A stretch of DNA of 64,000 nucleotides from Deltaproteobacteria bacterium. GTDB lineage: Bacteria > UBA10199 > JACPAL01. The notes beneath the pieces are model-generated. The model had not been told where the DNA came from. It saw only the letters and a list, made by a program, of their open reading frames with translations, and did not search any database. Shown here piece after piece: positions 11,162 to 57,293 of the stretch. Both the position numbers and the translations under genes were made by a program. The stretch lies in assembly GCA_016180855.1 (NCBI GenBank), contig JACPAL010000005.1:52905-116904 (forward strand), written 5' to 3'. The stretch's first letter is position 1. Each line of letters opens with the position of its first letter.

Positions 11162-12609
11162 TCTCTCCAGAAATTCCAAAAATCGTTCCGGGCCGCCTCT
11201 TCATCATTCTCTTCTGAAGAGGCCGATTGACAGTCAGGGCAGAAACTGGCCTCCCCCTCCTCGCTATGGTTTCCACTACAGACCTCGGGTGGGTGGGGCA
11301 TGGGAGAGGGAGGCAAGGTGTATGGTGGGGGATACGAATCATCATCGGACTCAGGCAGTTCGGGCAAATCCGGGCAAAGAGCGGGATGGGATTCTGAATC
11401 GCTCTGGTAATAGGCCGCCTCGGCGGCCTCTTGGTCCAGACTGTTTCCATTTCGGCTGACGCTTACCTCTGAAATCGTTTCGGTCTCCAAGTGGCACAGG
11501 TAACTGATCTCCAATACCCATTGATCGTATGAATTGGAAAGACGGAAGGAACAGTGAACCTCATCGTAGCCCGACATAAACCTGCCGGCGCAGCAGGCAC
11601 AGGGGTCTTCTGAACCGTAGGGGCCATACGGATCTCTAAAGCAGACGACACAGGAACCGGTTCTGCTCGGATTGGGTGAAGGAGGAGGGGGTACCGGTGG
11701 CCGAGAGGAACACTCTTCACATAAGAGGAACTTCCCTGTCACCGGGTCATCATGGAATATATCGTATCCTCCCTCTTCCGTAAGGCAGCTGTAAAACTCG
11801 TGGCCGTGCTCTTCCTCAAAGGAACAGGTCATCATCGTTGCCTCACAGGAAACGACTTCCGTTGCGATATCCCGATGACAGACCTCGCCGGTTGCGGGGT
11901 CATACCAGACATCCGGATTCATGCGTGGATAGTCGACAAGAGGGTGATCAAAACAGTCCTCCTCGCAGGCACGTGTACAGGGACCGGTGGGGCATGGGAG
12001 AGAGGGATCTGTACAGACAGGGCAAATATACTCGTCTTCTCCCCCTTCGCAGATAGTATTACCGCAGGTTGGTACTGTCTCAAAACAGTCCTCCTCGCAG
12101 GCGAGTATACAGGGACCCATGGGGCATGGGAGAGAGGGATCTGCACAGACAGGGCAAATATACTCGTCCTCTCCCTCTTCGCAGAGCCCATTGCCGCAGA
12201 TTGTTAACGACGGTGTCGGTAGACAATTTGGATCGCTCCGATAAAGACCTGTATCGGGATCGAGTCTAAACATGACGATTATTTGATCTCCCCCCTCCAC
12301 TTTTTGGCAGGTATAGGTGTTTGTTAACACATCGAGGAGACAGGTCATGTCGGTTGTTTCGCAGTCGGTTGCCCCCGTCACTGAATCGTGGTGGCAGATC
12401 TGATTGGTTGTGGGATCGTACCACATTTCTGCATCAGGACAGGATGATAGTGAATCATTACCGGTCGGTTCTCCCTCGTCAAATCCAATAGAGACTGTCC
12501 CGCTGTTGTCGGGAATTTCATCTGTCTCTGTAGAGGTCGACTCCGGGGGGACTACGAGACAGGAGAGGTTCAAGATCAGGATCAGGGGAAGGAATAATTT
12601 CAATATCAC
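11152..12609 (-). CDS. Secreted cysteine-rich repeat protein (Myxococcus-type Cys-rich repeats), proline- and acid-rich C-terminus; GTG start
   Basis: N-terminal hydrophobic signal; repeated units ICGNGLCEEGEDEYICPVC(A/T)DPSLPCP(M/T)GPC and (M/V)WYDP(T/A)T(N/G)(Q/E)(I/V)CH(H/R)D; 132-bp tandem DNA repeat inside. Confidence 0.65.
   Translation of the reverse strand: MILKLFLPLILILNLSCLVVPPESTSTETDEIPDNSGTVSIGFDEGEPTGNDSLSSCPDAEMWYDPTTNQICHHDSVTGATDCETTDMTCLLDVLTNTYTCQKVEGGDQIIVMFRLDPDTGLYRSDPNCLPTPSLTICGNGLCEEGEDEYICPVCADPSLPCPMGPCILACEEDCFETVPTCGNTICEGGEDEYICPVCTDPSLPCPTGPCTRACEEDCFDHPLVDYPRMNPDVWYDPATGEVCHRDIATEVVSCEATMMTCSFEEEHGHEFYSCLTEEGGYDIFHDDPVTGKFLLCEECSSRPPVPPPPSPNPSRTGSCVVCFRDPYGPYGSEDPCACCAGRFMSGYDEVHCSFRLSNSYDQWVLEISYLCHLETETISEVSVSRNGNSLDQEAAEAAYYQSDSESHPALCPDLPELPESDDDSYPPPYTLPPSPMPHPPEVCSGNHSEEGEASFCPDCQSASSEENDEEAARNDFWNFWRDYR
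11953..12216. repeat. Two tandem copies of a 132-bp (44-codon) repeat inside the Cys-rich protein gene
   Basis: Units starting about 11953 and about 12085 are roughly 85-90% identical at the DNA level (acagtcctcctcgcaggc...gggcaaatatactcgtc...). Confidence 0.8.
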
Positions 12610-23130: not shown

Positions 23131-25455
23131 ATGCGGATTAGAGAGGCCCTTTTTATATCCTTTTTGTCGATCGTTCTTTCGGTCCCTCTTCATTCGGCCC
23201 CGGGGGATCTCGATTTTACCTTTGGCCTAGAAGGGGTTGGATTGACAGACTTTGAGCAGGAGATCGACGGGGTTGCTGATATCGCCATTCAACCGGACGG
23301 GAAAATAATTGTGGTCGGAACGATGAAGGAGGCGAGCCACCAGTCGTTTGCGGTCGCCCGGTTTCTCTCCGATGGCTCTCTTGATACCACCTTTGGCAAT
23401 GACGGTCTCGTTACGGACGACTTTGGCGGAGTAGGGGTCAATCAGGCCTCGGCAGTTGCTGTCAGCAATAATGGAAAGATTATTGTTGTCGGTCGTTCGG
23501 GACTTTATATCGGTGTCCTTCGTCTGACGCCTCAGGGAGCCGTTAATTGGAGGGTAAGACCCAATCCGTACCCCTGGGTTGATATCGCGACGGATGTTTA
23601 TACGCATCCCAATTTAGGCAATATTCATATTGCGGGAATCACCGGCTATTCGTCGACCTGGGTTCCGATTATCGGTTGTCTCCATGACACTGGAACTCCT
23701 TGCACCTTTTTTGGTCAGTGGGAGGAGGGGCGGCCAGGATGGAATGACGCAAACTTCCCCGATACGACACAAGACGTCGCCTCATCCATTGCCTATGATT
23801 CCCATAATGAGCGATTCATCCTGGGGGGATTTGCGGGTGATGGAACGAGTGACCGTTTTGGTCTTGTCCAGTTTGACCTCAAGGGAGATTTGAGGACGAG
23901 TTTCGGGACGAGTGGTTACGTGAGACGCGATATCAGCGGTTCGACAATGGAAAGGATGACCGAGATTGCGGTTCAGGAGTGGGATCAGAAGATTGTGGCG
24001 GTCGGTTTCGGGCAGGTCTCCGGTAATAATCAGATCGTCGTTGCTCGCTACAACATCGATGGGACTTGGGATAACAGCTTCAGCAGCGATGGGTCGACAA
24101 TAACGAATGTCCCCGGTTGTACGAATGCAAAGGCGGCGAGTGTTGCGATCCAGGAAGACCGAAAGATTGTCGTTGCGGGTACCTGCCGTGAGAGTAGCGG
24201 GACACCGCATTTCACCCTTATTCGCTATAACACCAACGGGTCGATTGATACGACATTTGGAACAAACGGTTTCATGACACTTTCCCTCCCCGGAACCTCA
24301 ACGGGCGGTGAAGGGTATGCTGTGCAACTCCAGGGGGATGGTCGGATTCTTGTCGGTGGTATTGCGGATGAAGAGCTTGCCGTTGCCCGGTACTATCACG
24401 ATAATGCGATGGGGGTTACATTAAGTCTGACGGGAGAGATTCCCACAACGATCATTCCCGAACAGACGATCAACGTCGGTCTCCTTGTTCAGAGTGACGG
24501 TCCTGACGACGGTTCTGCTGAGTTAACGGCCTATTTCCCTCTGCAGACGGAATTTGTCTCCTCCTCTCTCTCCGGCTGTACGTCGACGGTGGTAAATTAT
24601 TGCGGTCTGCTCCACACCACGACCGTTTGCGGAGATCACCGGCGGGTTCGATGTCCTGTTGGGACGCTTGCTTCGGGGGCTTCTCTGCCGGTCACCCTCT
24701 CCGTCCGTCCCAAGGCGGTTGGCCCGTTTGAGAGTCGCGTTGAAGTTGTCGGGGAGTTTTTGGATTTTGATCTGTCTAATAATGTAACATCCTGGGGACG
24801 AACCGTCGTGGCTGCGGCGAATCTTGGTGTCACGATTGAGAATGGATCATCCCTGGTTGTTGGAGATGAATCGAGTTTTCGCGTCTCTGTTGAGAACCAT
24901 GGCCCCAATAATACGACGGGAGTTGTCTTGACGCTTGAGCTTTCTGACAGTGCTATTTTTGAATCGACCAGTTCCAGCCTCTGTCATGGTGAGTCACCGG
25001 TCATCTGTGATATTGGCTCGCTGGCGTCCGGTGCCTCCTTTGAGGTTGAGTTAACATTCTCCTCCAATCAGGAGGGGAAGATCCTGCTCGATGCCTCTAC
25101 CTCCTCCGCAATTATGGATCCAGACAGCTCGGATAACACAAAAAGAGGAGAGATAACCTCCTCATTGTCGGAAGAGGAGATTGAAGAGGAGGAGAGCCGT
25201 CTCTGTTTCTTCAATGGTTCCCGTTGTCGGGATGAGGAGACCGAGGAGGAGGAGCCTCCCTCCGGTTGCCAACCCGGTGATCCCGGTTGTAATACGACGG
25301 GGCAAGGCAACCTGAATCAGACAGTTGCAGAGGCCGGTGGTTGCGGTTGCCGGATCGCCTCCAATACGAGTGGCCCCGATTCAACAGCCCTTCTCTTCCT
25401 GTTTTTCCTGATTCCACTTGCCTGGGTACGTTTTGGTAGAGACTGGGGTCTGTAA
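23131..25455 (+). CDS. Secreted delta-60-repeat (beta-propeller) protein with DUF11/CARDB-like surface-repeat domains and a C-terminal GCGC-type sorting signal (MYXO-CTERM-like)
   Basis: Repeated LDTTFGNDG...NGKIIVVG units; DUF11/CARDB-like segments; tail AGGCGCRIASNTSGPDSTALLFLFFLIPLAWVRFGRD; start taken at MRIREALF (signal peptide). Confidence 0.7.
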   Translation: MRIREALFISFLSIVLSVPLHSAPGDLDFTFGLEGVGLTDFEQEIDGVADIAIQPDGKIIVVGTMKEASHQSFAVARFLSDGSLDTTFGNDGLVTDDFGGVGVNQASAVAVSNNGKIIVVGRSGLYIGVLRLTPQGAVNWRVRPNPYPWVDIATDVYTHPNLGNIHIAGITGYSSTWVPIIGCLHDTGTPCTFFGQWEEGRPGWNDANFPDTTQDVASSIAYDSHNERFILGGFAGDGTSDRFGLVQFDLKGDLRTSFGTSGYVRRDISGSTMERMTEIAVQEWDQKIVAVGFGQVSGNNQIVVARYNIDGTWDNSFSSDGSTITNVPGCTNAKAASVAIQEDRKIVVAGTCRESSGTPHFTLIRYNTNGSIDTTFGTNGFMTLSLPGTSTGGEGYAVQLQGDGRILVGGIADEELAVARYYHDNAMGVTLSLTGEIPTTIIPEQTINVGLLVQSDGPDDGSAELTAYFPLQTEFVSSSLSGCTSTVVNYCGLLHTTTVCGDHRRVRCPVGTLASGASLPVTLSVRPKAVGPFESRVEVVGEFLDFDLSNNVTSWGRTVVAAANLGVTIENGSSLVVGDESSFRVSVENHGPNNTTGVVLTLELSDSAIFESTSSSLCHGESPVICDIGSLASGASFEVELTFSSNQEGKILLDASTSSAIMDPDSSDNTKRGEITSSLSEEEIEEEESRLCFFNGSRCRDEETEEEEPPSGCQPGDPGCNTTGQGNLNQTVAEAGGCGCRIASNTSGPDSTALLFLFFLIPLAWVRFGRDWGL

Positions 25456-25485
25456 ACCTTCCTTTGAATTCGGTCATCATCTCAA

Positions 25486-25510
25486 CACCATGAAAGCAAT
25501 GGTATTTTTT
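25486..25510 (+). terminator. Weak Rho-independent terminator after delta-60 gene 1
   Basis: ACCAT-gaaagca-ATGGT hairpin followed by ATTTTTT. Confidence 0.4.
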
Positions 25511-25521
25511 AACGATCGTAT

Positions 25522-25537
25522 TGGCATTTCACTTGCA
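25522..25537 (+). promoter_or_regulatory. Sigma-54 promoter (TGGCAT-ttcac-TTGCA) for delta-60 gene 2
   Basis: Canonical -24/-12 spacing; ATG at 25552 with an aagg RBS in between. Confidence 0.6.
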
Positions 25538-25551
25538 GTTCTACCTAAGGC

Positions 25552-27396
25552 ATGAGGAAAATATACCTTACTCTGTTCGCGCTCCTTTTAATGACCGGTC
25601 AGCTTTTTGCGGGCCTTGATGATTTAGATACGAGCTTTGGCCCGGCTGGGACCGGGATTGTCACGCTCGATCTGGACGTAGCGGACGCGAGTGACAAGAC
25701 GGTTATCAACGATGTTGAGATTCAAGCGGATGGCAAGATCGTCGTCGCGGGATATCATCTGCAGGGAACCGATAATGACATTGTTCTGGCCCGGTTTAAT
25801 GCCGATGGGACGATTGATAGTTCATTCGGAGCGGATGGTAATGGTGTTGTTATTACCGATTTGGGAACCGATCAGGATATCGGTTATGCGCTCTCGCTTG
25901 GCTCTAGTGGTGGCAAAATTGTCGTTGCGGGTGAGAAGGACGGAAATTTTGCGGTCCTTCGCTATAACACCAATGGGACTCTCGATACGAGTTTTGACAC
26001 CGACGGCATTGTGACAACCGACTTTGGGGGTGCCGATACCGCACGGGATGTTGTTGCTATCTTTGGCGGGGGAATCGTTGCTGTGGGATACTCTGTGGGG
26101 TCAGGGGCTGCGACCGACTTCGCCCTGGCCAAATATACAAGCTCTGGTGCCCTGGATCCCGCCTTTGATGGGGCCTCGTCCGGCAATGGAAAATTCAAGA
26201 CCGATTTTGGGAGTTCTGACAAGGCGTATGCCTTTGCCTTTGTTGGTTCCCGGCTTATTGTTGCCGGTCAGTCCGCAAACAATTTCGCCCTAGCCAAGTA
26301 TAATGCCACTACGGGGGCACTCGATACGACCTTTGATGGGGATGGAAAGCTCACGACCGATTTTGGCGGCTCTGATGCGGCCTACGCGATAAAGACAGTC
26401 GGGACGACCTCTCTCATTGTTGCCGGCAAGGGTGGAAATGACTTTGCCATGGCGAAATACTTGAACTCCAACGGGGCGCTCGATACGACCTTCAGCGGTG
26501 ACGGGAAGCTCACGACCGATATCGGGGCCTCATCCGTTGACTATGCCAATGACCTTGTGATCGACAATTCCACCAGTACAATTCTTGTTGCCGGAAAGGC
26601 GGGGGGCGATTTTGGGATTGCCCGTTACGATTTCAGCGGCACTCTTGATCCTGCTTTTGATTCGGATGGGAAGCTCACCCTCAATTTGGGGGGTGATCAG
26701 GACATTCCGACCTCCATTGAGCTGCTGTCTAACGGCAGGTTTCTTGTTGGCGGAAAGAAGGGGGTTGGGGGCAGTGTGGGAGAGATGGCGCTCGTCCAAT
26801 ACGGCTCTTACTCGGCCGATGCCAGTGTCTCCCTTACAGCGAGTGCTGATTCGATCCTCGTCGGATCGGAGGTCACTTATACGATTGGGCTTTCCAATAA
26901 CGGGTTGGATACAATGACGGTCTATGGTCTCGATGCTGACTTCGATTCATCGTTTGAATTTGTCTCTGTCGCAATCACCCAAGGGACCTGTGAGTTTTAT
27001 GAGGGGGATAACGAGCTTAATTGTGGAGGTATTGGCCCCTTGGCAGGTGGAGGGTTTGTTGAGGTGACATTGGTCTTGAAGGCAACGGTCGCTGGTTCGT
27101 TAAACGGCTGGGCCGGAGTCTCTGCCTCCCCCGACAATAACAGTTCAAACGACAGCATAACCCTTATTGTAACAGCGTTTGCTACGGAAGAGGAGTTGCC
27201 TCCTCGTTGCGGTGACGATCAGTGTGGTGGCGATGAGAGCTGCTCCAGTTGTGAGGCCCCTCTATCAATATTCCTGGTGGAACGACCCCCGGCACTCCTG
27301 GCACTCAACAGAATGTCACGGTTGGTGAGGCGGGCGGTGCGGGCGGTTGCTCGATGTTGGGAAACGAGTCGTCCCGATCAACCGACCTTCTGCTGA
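25552..27396 (+). CDS. Secreted delta-60-repeat protein with DUF11/CARDB-like domains; the C-terminal sorting tail is displaced into another frame (frameshift near 27250-27270)
   Basis: Signal peptide MRKIYLTLFALLLMTGQLFA; delta-60 repeats; the alternate frame from about 27251 to about 27466 encodes GEAGGAGGCSMLGNESSRSTDLLLTILLTGISLLMIWRD, matching paralog 1's tail. Confidence 0.7.
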   Translation: MRKIYLTLFALLLMTGQLFAGLDDLDTSFGPAGTGIVTLDLDVADASDKTVINDVEIQADGKIVVAGYHLQGTDNDIVLARFNADGTIDSSFGADGNGVVITDLGTDQDIGYALSLGSSGGKIVVAGEKDGNFAVLRYNTNGTLDTSFDTDGIVTTDFGGADTARDVVAIFGGGIVAVGYSVGSGAATDFALAKYTSSGALDPAFDGASSGNGKFKTDFGSSDKAYAFAFVGSRLIVAGQSANNFALAKYNATTGALDTTFDGDGKLTTDFGGSDAAYAIKTVGTTSLIVAGKGGNDFAMAKYLNSNGALDTTFSGDGKLTTDIGASSVDYANDLVIDNSTSTILVAGKAGGDFGIARYDFSGTLDPAFDSDGKLTLNLGGDQDIPTSIELLSNGRFLVGGKKGVGGSVGEMALVQYGSYSADASVSLTASADSILVGSEVTYTIGLSNNGLDTMTVYGLDADFDSSFEFVSVAITQGTCEFYEGDNELNCGGIGPLAGGGFVEVTLVLKATVAGSLNGWAGVSASPDNNSSNDSITLIVTAFATEEELPPRCGDDQCGGDESCSSCEAPLSIFLVERPPALLALNRMSRLVRRAVRAVARCWETSRPDQPTFC

Positions 27397-27456
27397 CGAT
27401 CCTTCTGACGGGGATCTCTCTCCTCATGATCTGGCGGGACTCGCTCAAACGGACGA

Positions 27457-28551
27457 TTAAACATTAAATCTGAAGAAGAGGATATCGCCGTCCTTGACGA
27501 CGTAGTCTTTCCCTTCCAGGCGCATTTTCCCTGCCTCCCGGACCTTGAGTTCAGAGCCGTAGGTGAGCAGGTCATCATAATGGTAGCATTCAGCCCGGAT
27601 AAACCCTTTTTCAAAGTCGGAATGAATAATACCGGCCGCTTGCGGCGCCTTTGTCCCCCGATTGATCGTCCAGGCCCGTACCTCCTTCGGGCCGGCGGTG
27701 AAATAGGTTGTGAGGCCGAGCAAACGGTATCCGGCATGGGCGAGTTGGTCGAGTCCTGATTCTTTGAGTCCGATCTCCTTGAGAAAGGCAGGGCGTTCCT
27801 CCGGCGGGAGGGCGGCGATCTCCGATTCGATCTTTCCACTGATCGTCACGACCTCGGATCCCTGTTTTTGGGCCAGTTCACACAACGCCTCTACTTTTGC
27901 ATTGGATGAAGCAAGGTCCGACTCTGAGACATTGGCGACATACAAGATCGGTTTGGAGGTGAGCAGGAAGAGGTCTCTTATGAACGGCCTCTCCTCCTCT
28001 GAAAGTGGGACCGTTCTTGCGGGTCGTCCCTCCCCGAGCGCCTGTTGAACCTTTTGATAAACAGGGAGGCAGAGCGCGGCCTCCTTGTCTCCGACCTTCG
28101 CCTGCTTCTCCGTTTTTTCAAGTCGCTTGGTGATTGCCTCAAGATCGGCGAGCATCAGTTCCGTCTCAATCACACCGACATCCCGAAGCGGATCGACACC
28201 TCCATGGACATGAACGACATTTGCGTCGTCAAAACAGCGGACAACATGTGCGATCGCATCGACCTCGCGGATATGGGCGAGGAACTGGTTCCCCAGCCCC
28301 TCGCCTTTAGAGGCCCCCTCGACGAGGCCGGCGATATCGACGAACTCGATTGTTGTTGGGGTTGTCTTCTGCGGTTTGAAGATCTCGGTCAACTTCTGAA
28401 GCCGTTCATCCGGCACGGAGACGACGCCGACGTTCGGTTCAATTGTGCAAAACGGATAGTTCTCCGCCGCCACACCGGCGGCCGTCATCGCGTTAAAGAG
28501 GGTCGACTTGCCGACGTTGGGCAGTCCAACAATACCGCATCGAAATCCCAT
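27457..28551 (-). CDS. ychF: Ribosome-binding ATPase YchF/Ola1
   Basis: [16 protein letters not shown]1 motif, TGS C-terminal domain; the conserved start is the Met at MGFRCGIVG. Confidence 0.85.
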
Positions 28552-55934: not shown

Positions 55935-57293
55935 ATGAGGAATAAGATCCCGTTATTTTTGGTATCTCTTTTTATTGTCTTATCGGGTGGTCTTGAGGCG
56001 TATGGCCCTCGTTCTGTCACGAACTCCGGCAATGTTGTTAAATGGAGCCTCCCGGTTCGGATCGATCTGGAGTCGGATCTGGATGTCCGCGGGAAGGATG
56101 TGACGGCCCTGATCAATGAAGGCTTGAATCAATGGGCTGACTTGTCCGAGTCGAACGTCACCTATACGCGAGAATCACTCGGTGTGGCGGTTGATGCCGA
56201 TAATGTCTGTTGTTATTTATATGATTCCGCCGCTTGTCCGAGCGGTCCCACCGATGACGGCAAAAATCCGATTGTCATTGATGATGATGGAGCTGTTGTT
56301 GCGAAATTTTTTGGCTCCTCCAACAAGCTCACAACGCTCGGTTTTGCGGCAGTGATTGCCTACGATGCGACGACGGGTGCAGCGGTGAAAGGGGAGGCGG
56401 TTTTTAATGCCGCCTGTCTTAAAGGGGTGGAGCTCGCGGATTGCACGGCGGTCAACCTCAGTTTTGCTGAGGATGATTTTATCTCGTTTATTGTGCATGA
56501 GATTGGACATTTTCTCGGGTTGAACCATGCCCAGGTTAATCTGACGGAGGCGGATAACAGTACGACATCCGATGACGACAAGATCACCACGATGTACGCC
56601 TTCTTCATTCAGGGGAATGGGTCCAACTTCAAGACACCCGAAAGGGATGATCAGGTGGGGCTTGCCTTTCTCTATCCGGAGAGCAGTTTCACCTCTTCCA
56701 CGTTCATGGCGGAGGGGACTGTTTTTGATACCAACGGCACGACTGAATTTGCCTGCGCCAATGTTATTGCCAGAAGCACAACTACTGATAAGACACGTAC
56801 GGATGCGGTCTCCTTTGTCTCCGGTCAGCTTTGCCCGGGTGGTACCTTCAACGATACGTGTGATGGAAACTACCAGATTCAGGGATTGAGCCCCTCCTCG
56901 AGCTACACGCTGGAGGTCGAGGCGATTAATACCAGTTTTCGAGGCTCTTCGGGTATCCCTCCCTGTGAGGCGGCCGGGGAACAGCCAACTTTTACGTCCC
57001 AAACTCGTTCTGGTTCGATCTCCGGCTCTGCTGGCGGGACCTCCAGCGCAAATAATTTTACCTTGTCCGGTACCAGTGGGAACGTGAACACCCTCCTCCT
57101 CCCCCTTGACGATGAGGATCTTCCGGAACTAGAGAGGGAGACGATATCGGACGCGATTTTGGCGATCGAGGCAAAGAGCGCTACAACAGACTGTTCCACG
57201 TCAACCACAGGGACAGACAGTGCGGATAGTGGTGATACCGCGGGGAGTAACAATAGCTCCGGTTGTTCCCTGATCCGTTCGAATCAAAAATGA
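55935..57293 (+). CDS. Secreted metzincin-type zinc metalloprotease
   Basis: Signal peptide; [11 protein letters not shown] (HExxHxxGxxH) with a downstream Met-turn (TTMYAF); Ser/Thr/Gly-rich C-terminal region. Confidence 0.7.

Follow-up and report, generated by a model that had tools for sequence, protein, structure and literature searches.

A class of tripartite sorting signals at the C-terminus, each with a Cys, has been described that includes MYXO-, JDVT-, Synerg- and CGP-CTERM, and every member has its partner among the glutamic intramembrane proteases of the CPBP family (MrtX/C/P, MrtJ, MrtS and MrtA) (Haft, bioRxiv 10.1101/2023.06.07.544157). It has been reported that the MYXO-CTERM signal of TraA is cleaved by MrtX in a Cys-dependent manner (Guo, Haft and Wall, mBio 2025, PMC11980579), and that the JDVT-CTERM signal has a single Cys followed nine residues later by a nearly invariant DP (Haft, bioRxiv 10.1101/2023.06.07.544157). 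The short models for such signals are sensitive to lineage, and lineage-specific models together with curator review are needed (Haft, bioRxiv 10.1101/2023.06.07.544157). Here we analyzed two neighboring genes, gene 1 and gene 2, in a 64-kb stretch of DNA (the window) from JACPAL010000005.1, a 157-kb NCBI metagenome-assembled contig labelled "Deltaproteobacteria bacterium". We found that gene 2, whose reading frame is broken before its C-terminal tail in this contig, is intact in three independent assemblies, and that both genes encode proteins ending in a Cys-containing tail. The best joint explanation, which we consider probable, is that the contig omits 139 nt, that gene 2 is intact, and that both proteins are exported with sorting tails of the Cys type. 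Features of the locus in window coordinates are as follows.

23131..25455, plus strand: gene 1 (NCBI HYT77_03145); the ORF is open from 23071, and 774 aa are counted from the ATG at 23131.
25336..25452, plus strand: tail of protein 1, residues 736-774, consisting of EAGGCGC, RIASNTSGPDS, the helix TALLFLFFLIPLAWV and RFGRDWGL.
25552..27396, plus strand: gene 2 ORF as annotated (HYT77_03150, MBI2066991.1), 614 aa.
25552..27257, plus strand: in-frame 5' part of gene 2, with signal peptide, delta-60 propeller, one DUF11 domain and the start of a Cys-rich acidic linker, up to ...DESCSSCEA.
27257..27258, plus strand: junction lacking 139 nt; the block corresponds to positions 11707-11845 of Logan contig L002 and encodes DCGVCEEEELDPFCGDAECDDDESCSSCEADCGVCEEEEEEETEPD (four-way DNA alignment, blastn and repeat analysis).
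27258..27467, plus strand: genuine 3' end of gene 2; with respect to 25552 its frame is -1, and it is in frame in the Logan proteins P0121 and P0122.
27259..27396, plus strand: spurious out-of-frame extension of the 614-aa product, PLSIFLVERPPALLALNRMSRLVRRAVRAVARCWETSRPDQPTFC followed by a stop.
27324..27464, plus strand: tail of protein 2, consisting of GEAGGAGGC, SMLGNESSRSTD, the helix LLLTILLTGISLLMIW and a 10-residue end.
27457..28551, minus strand: ychF, 364 aa, convergent with gene 2 (PF01926, PF06071).

The initial annotation of the locus had placed an intact tail of gene 2 in another frame, from about 27251 to about 27466, and the end of the annotated frame in unrelated sequence at 27396. 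Both statements held. Three-frame translation of positions 27100-27500 showed that frame 27102+3n is open from 27255, after a TGA at 27252-27254, to a TAA at 27465-27467, and that the annotated frame enters unrelated sequence before it stops. The recovered gene 2 stop overlaps the 3' end of ychF (stop at 27457-27459) by 11 nt, in agreement with the 10 bp or so first estimated. Gene 2 was then compared with Logan assembly contigs from runs SRR12113431 (16 kb), SRR12113429 and SRR12113422.

L002 (SRR12113431): 100.000% identical to the window over 11,706 + 2,688 nt.
L003 (SRR12113429): 100.000% identical to the window over 1,887 + 1,450 nt.
L004 (SRR12113422): 370 nt at 100% and 1,002 nt with 2 mismatches relative to the window.

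The sole structural difference between these three contigs and the window was a 139-nt segment between 27257 and 27258. Clustered with the 614-aa product at 90% identity were two Logan proteins, P0121 (684 aa) and P0122 (a C-terminal fragment of 230 aa). Both are the same as the window protein up to ...DESCSSCEA and then have 46 added residues, after which they go on in frame through PSINIPGG... to the tail; residues 1-569 of P0121 are identical to the window-encoded in-frame part of protein 2. Restoring the 139 nt yields an intact 684-aa protein 2 with two 30-aa Cys-rich acidic repeats before the tail. In the intact linker DNA, a 90-nt (30-aa) unit is tandemly doubled at 79% identity (copies EEELPPRCGDDQCGGDESCSSCEADCGVCE and EEELDPFCGDAECDDDESCSSCEADCGVCE), and the missing block starts inside the first copy and ends 30 nt past the second. 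Microhomology is absent from the junction, and 139 cannot be divided by 3. The 614-aa form was recorded solely from the NCBI genome record and in no Logan assembly, and the 16-kb Logan contig passes through the break site unbroken. No match to the exact 41-nt right flank was found in the JGI metagenome contigs scanned. As for the repeat itself (L002 11636-11815, 2 x 30 aa), it has the pattern CG(D)xxCxxDESCSSCEADCGVCEEE, and the linker matched no family in Pfam or NCBIfam, including TIGR02232.

We conclude that gene 2 is intact in the natural population and that HYT77_03150 should be read as a protein of 684 aa. Since three independent assemblies carry the intact gene, the frameshift is most likely an artefact, most probably introduced locally during assembly or scaffolding at the 90-nt tandem repeat. 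Because 139 nt are omitted, the genuine tail falls out of frame and a false 614-aa product is created. Assembly error had been one of three options in the initial annotation and is the one favored by the 139-nt comparison; the other two, pseudogenisation and phase variation, are contradicted by the intact 684-aa protein encoded in three Logan assemblies. Phase variation or programmed frameshifting at a C-run (gaggcccct), which would toggle protein 2 between anchored and released forms, gains something from the short C4 run that coincides with the position of the frame change. The shift had indeed been mapped near this run, at 27250-27270, and the position was correct to within a few bases; what differs there, however, is an absent block of 139 nt and not the length of a homopolymer. 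At the break the intact sequence reads GAGGC followed by GGATTGC... (GAGGCGGATTGC...), so the apparent C-run arises only from the junction. In addition, C4 is too short to slip efficiently, and a slippery heptamer becomes unnecessary when the 139 nt are put back. We consider toggling at this site extremely improbable. Two specific routes were rejected: a homopolymer slip or programmed -1 frameshift, by the 139-nt difference and the missing C-run in the intact sequence, and the collapse of one 90-nt repeat unit, by the size of the block and its extent from the first copy to 30 nt beyond the second.

P0002 was the one close homologue of protein 2 (62% identical), and the other matches listed for the two proteins were at most 47% identical. 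P0002 is encoded at 93-1754 of L001 (Logan SRR12113385) and ends right after DUF11 (...ISSVVTSPSP, then a stop), lacking both the Cys-rich linker and a tail; another 29 nt of contig follow. Perhaps P0002 represents a form of the protein that is unanchored by nature. This relative bears on the possibility that a real 139-nt deletion allele, either a pseudogene or a released unanchored variant, coexists with the intact allele in the source population of the contig, as it suggests that unanchored forms are viable in this protein family; besides, the deposited contig does carry the deletion, and linkers containing repeats rearrange readily. However, the 614-aa product occurs in no Logan assembly while the intact form is found in three runs, one of them with a 16-kb contig unbroken across the site, and the deletion is a blunt one that shifts the frame and does not correspond to a change in repeat units. 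We regard such an allele as unlikely, and the omission as most likely an artefact, judging from the assembled sequences.

With gene 2 restored, the two proteins can be compared. Protein 1 combines a signal peptide and a delta-60 beta-propeller with two DUF11/CARDB domains, followed by an acidic linker that contains Cys and a tripartite tail of the Cys type. It passed TIGR02608 in six stretches (E 6e-57, 189.3 bits, curated cut-off 76.5) and DUF11 PF01345 in two (E 1e-19, 71.3 bits, Pfam gathering 24.6), and also matched PF17164 (DUF5122) and PF07705 (CARDB). Similarly, protein 2 passed TIGR02608 in six stretches (E 7.5e-63, 208.2 bits, cut-off 76.5; 206.8 bits for the intact 684-aa P0121) and PF01345 in one (E 2e-12, 47.6 bits, gathering 24.6), and it too matched PF17164/DUF5122. 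The combination of delta-60 repeats with DUF11/CARDB domains first proposed for both proteins is therefore borne out, with TIGR02608, DUF5122 and PF01345 in both and CARDB in protein 1. The two had also been called paralogous; the shared architecture stands, but identity across the propeller region is only 25%, and they appear to have a common architecture without being close paralogues. Plausible Sec signal peptides can be read at both N-termini, MRIREALFISFLSIVLSVPLHSA followed by PGDLD in protein 1 and MRKIYLTLFALLLMTGQLFA followed by GLDDLD in protein 2. The NCBI start of gene 1 at 23164 (763 aa, P0124, MSIVLSVPL...) cuts away the charged n-region of the signal peptide, and the start at ATG 23131 (774 aa) restores a normal one. 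An identical 774-aa protein 1 product was also called on a Logan contig.

In the ORF translation, the C-terminal end of protein 1 is AEAGGCGCRIASNTSGPDSTALLFLFFLIPLAWVRFGRDWGL, and its ending as translated in the window reads NQTVAEAGGCGCRIASNTSGPDSTALLFLFFLIPLAWVRFGRDWGL. Both tails follow a common plan, GG(x)C, a polar spacer of about 10-12 residues with Asp at its end, a hydrophobic helix of 15-16 residues and a basic cluster, and around the Cys motif they share 11 of 20 residues (a single comparison, E 0.002). The motif is GGCGC in protein 1 and GGC in protein 2, with the helix and basic residues following within the last 40-47 residues, so that both proteins have at the extreme C-terminus the tripartite layout with Cys that characterizes MYXO-CTERM. 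The tails differ in detail: protein 1 has two Cys, PD at +9/+10 and a Pro within its helix, whereas protein 2 has one Cys, TD at +11/+12 and a helix without Pro. Neither contains a PEP motif, and a polar spacer of 10-12 residues parts GGC from the helix. The initial reading of a GCGC-type tail without PEP motif on protein 1 agrees with both the translation and the model search. The resemblance to MYXO-CTERM proposed along with it is real for protein 1 but remains below threshold, as protein 1 scored 18.3 bits with the isolated tail and 14.4 with the full protein against TIGR03901 (cut-off 20). The protein 2 tail had no match to this model at E<=1; its best curated C-terminal model was JDVT-CTERM NF033191, at 10.4 bits (cut-off 27), which protein 1 did not match. 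The combination of a single Cys with DP nine residues on is found in neither window tail, and PEP-CTERM, GlyGly-CTERM and other C-terminal sorting models gave no match at E<=1 for either.

Further evidence came from a relative. Among the GTDB species representatives scanned, which do not include the source genome, the closest YchF (73% identical) was on contig L005 (CAYYFU010000123.1), and YchF relatives do not settle the phylum of the host. A partial ORF on this contig has the following position and content.

L005 4194-5285, minus strand: partial ORF encoding four Cys-rich acidic repeats of TIGR02232, with GGGGCSCSLGGPPVVDPFMVLLFASSLVGIVTRRRK as its tail.

This gene lies downstream of and convergent to ychF, roughly syntenic with gene 2. 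Its tail has DP at +9/+10 and passed JDVT-CTERM (28.0 vs cut-off 27), and an alignment of the three tails (protein 1, protein 2 and L005) showed an invariant GG..C column. Because the L005 tail passes JDVT-CTERM and shares GG..C, the wider lineage appears to make use of Cys-type sorting tails, as far as these alignments indicate. JDVT-CTERM itself has been described from Beta- and Gammaproteobacteria.

In the window, the gene pair is surrounded by genes for an M24 peptidase, YchF and an AAA_14/DUF4143 ATPase, and each of the window's four multi-pass membrane proteins is a CNNM/CBS transporter or an ABC permease. When the window was scanned in six frames, a complete tail in a long ORF was found only for protein 1, and about 19 kb of flanking sequence from Logan contigs contained no further tail-bearing ORF. 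Three other secreted or repeat-containing proteins were observed. A secreted zincin-type metalloprotease (window 55935-57293, plus strand) has a C-terminal sequence with a GCS(L/M) motif resembling the protein 2 tail, with no hydrophobic helix after it; it weakly matched Reprolysin_4 and the "myxosortase-dependent metalloprotease" model NF041905 (20 bits vs cut-off 250). Since the same C-terminus recurs in a second NCBI genome (HY539) and two Logan variants, it is not an assembly defect. It could be what is left of the sorting signal or a variant of it without the helix, and the protein might be a substrate of this helix-less kind. A small secreted protein (6537-6914, plus strand) has an extremely Cys-rich end, AACDDDCNWCCCDSNGQNCRCC, and matched no family. 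Adjoining it is a thrombospondin-type-3-like repeat protein (5979-6509, plus strand), which scored 28.9 bits against the model of the MYXO-CTERM protein MtsC (cut-off 350).

Several observations weigh against the joint explanation of a 139-nt omission and two Cys-type sorting tails. With regard to the omission, the comparison was made on assemblies, and a genuine low-frequency 139-nt deletion allele could be present in the source sample; also, the junction, which has no microhomology, is not a simple loss of one 90-nt unit. With regard to the tails, neither reached a curated cut-off, the Pro in the helix of protein 1 is atypical for MYXO-CTERM, and the DP motif of JDVT-CTERM is in neither. No CPBP, rhomboid or exosortase gene was found in the 64-kb window plus the flank of about 19 kb (~83 kb in total). 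Full-length searches of protein collections with both proteins revealed no close tail-bearing orthologue among the matches listed or read. Similarly, when the last 211 aa of protein 1 were searched exhaustively by HMMER, the listed matches outside its own cluster covered only the DUF11 part (query about 1-125) and none covered the linker or tail.

These tails might also be ordinary membrane anchors at the C-terminus, or hydrophobic ends that arose by chance, with no dedicated sorting enzyme. The scores under curated thresholds, the lack of a sorting enzyme nearby, the presence of just two complete tails in ~83 kb and the lack of tail-bearing orthologues among the matches listed or read all fit such ends. 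However, two proteins at 25% identity still close with GG..C, a polar spacer whose last residue is D, a helix and then a basic cluster, an unrelated protein of the L005 relative has the same design and passes JDVT-CTERM, and this design agrees with an experimentally validated class (PMC11980579). On balance, we find plain anchors or chance ends somewhat unlikely. Another possibility is that this uncultured lineage from groundwater has its own variant of the Cys-type signal, between MYXO-CTERM and JDVT-CTERM, with several substrates and an Mrt-type CPBP protease whose gene lies in another part of the genome. The signal of such a variant may follow the pattern GG-x(0-2)-C, a polar stretch of about 9-12 residues with Asp last, helix and basic cluster. 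We offer this lineage-specific variant tentatively and consider it doubtful.

If both proteins do carry Cys-type sorting tails, a route can be proposed for them, each step of which we infer by analogy with MYXO-CTERM and JDVT-CTERM. The exported protein would be held in the inner membrane by the tail helix, the Cys of the tail would be modified, probably by lipidation, a CPBP-family (Mrt-type) glutamic intramembrane protease would cut off the helix, and the protein would finally be anchored at the cell surface. By the same analogy, proteins 1 and 2 are most likely substrates of an Mrt-like CPBP sorting protease.

These results have consequences for the use of the deposited record. The C-terminus of HYT77_03150 (MBI2066991.1) is false, the real protein being 684 aa long with a sorting tail, and an account of pseudogenisation or phase variation based on this contig would be wrong. 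More generally, an apparent frameshift in a repeat-rich linker of a metagenome-assembled genome can be resolved with no recourse to reads, by comparing independent assemblies of sibling samples. The gene pair also adds candidate substrates to the Cys-type (myxosortase-like) sorting class, in a lineage with no earlier description of it. The tails represent a modest extension of the known class, which is plausible from their sequences even though they are sub-threshold to curated models.

Compared with known systems, the window tails are similar to the MYXO-CTERM/myxosortase system (MrtX, MrtC, MrtP; TIGR03901) in having a tripartite signal with an invariant Cys (even GCGC in protein 1), preceded by a Cys-rich acidic or disordered linker, and in their carriers, which are Sec-exported, adhesin-like multidomain proteins. 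Also, in both cases there is more than one substrate, and the enzyme gene is not adjacent. In contrast to MYXO-CTERM, the polar spacer from Cys to helix is longer in the window tails (10-12 residues), and the basic cluster is weak and broken by Asp. MYXO-CTERM has been described only from Myxococcota and Bradymonadales, whereas the host here is labelled "Deltaproteobacteria bacterium"; in addition, protein 1 scored 18.3 vs 20 and has Pro in its helix, protein 2 gave no match, and no myxosortase was found within the ~83 kb read. The JDVT-CTERM/MrtJ system (NF033191) shares with the window tails the Cys motif, a helix rich in Leu and an Asp close to the helix start, with a single-Cys motif in protein 2, and the tail of the L005 relative, with its DP at +9/+10, passes the model. 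However, the window tails reach at most 10.4 bits vs 27, with PD (protein 1) or TD (protein 2) in place of DP. Two substrates are adjacent here, whereas there is usually one per genome in the JDVT system, and no CPBP protease gene adjoins them, while one is adjacent in 16 of 17 JDVT cases. Finally, delta-60 repeat proteins (TIGR02608/PF17164) have the same propeller repeat, but the homologues retrieved had varied C-termini, including T9SS sorting domains (PF18962), LPXTG-type ends (LPKTG/LPETG) or no obvious anchor, and no Cys-type tripartite tail was seen among the 58 sequences read by eye. The combination of delta-60 repeats, DUF11 and a Cys-type tail was seen only in this population.

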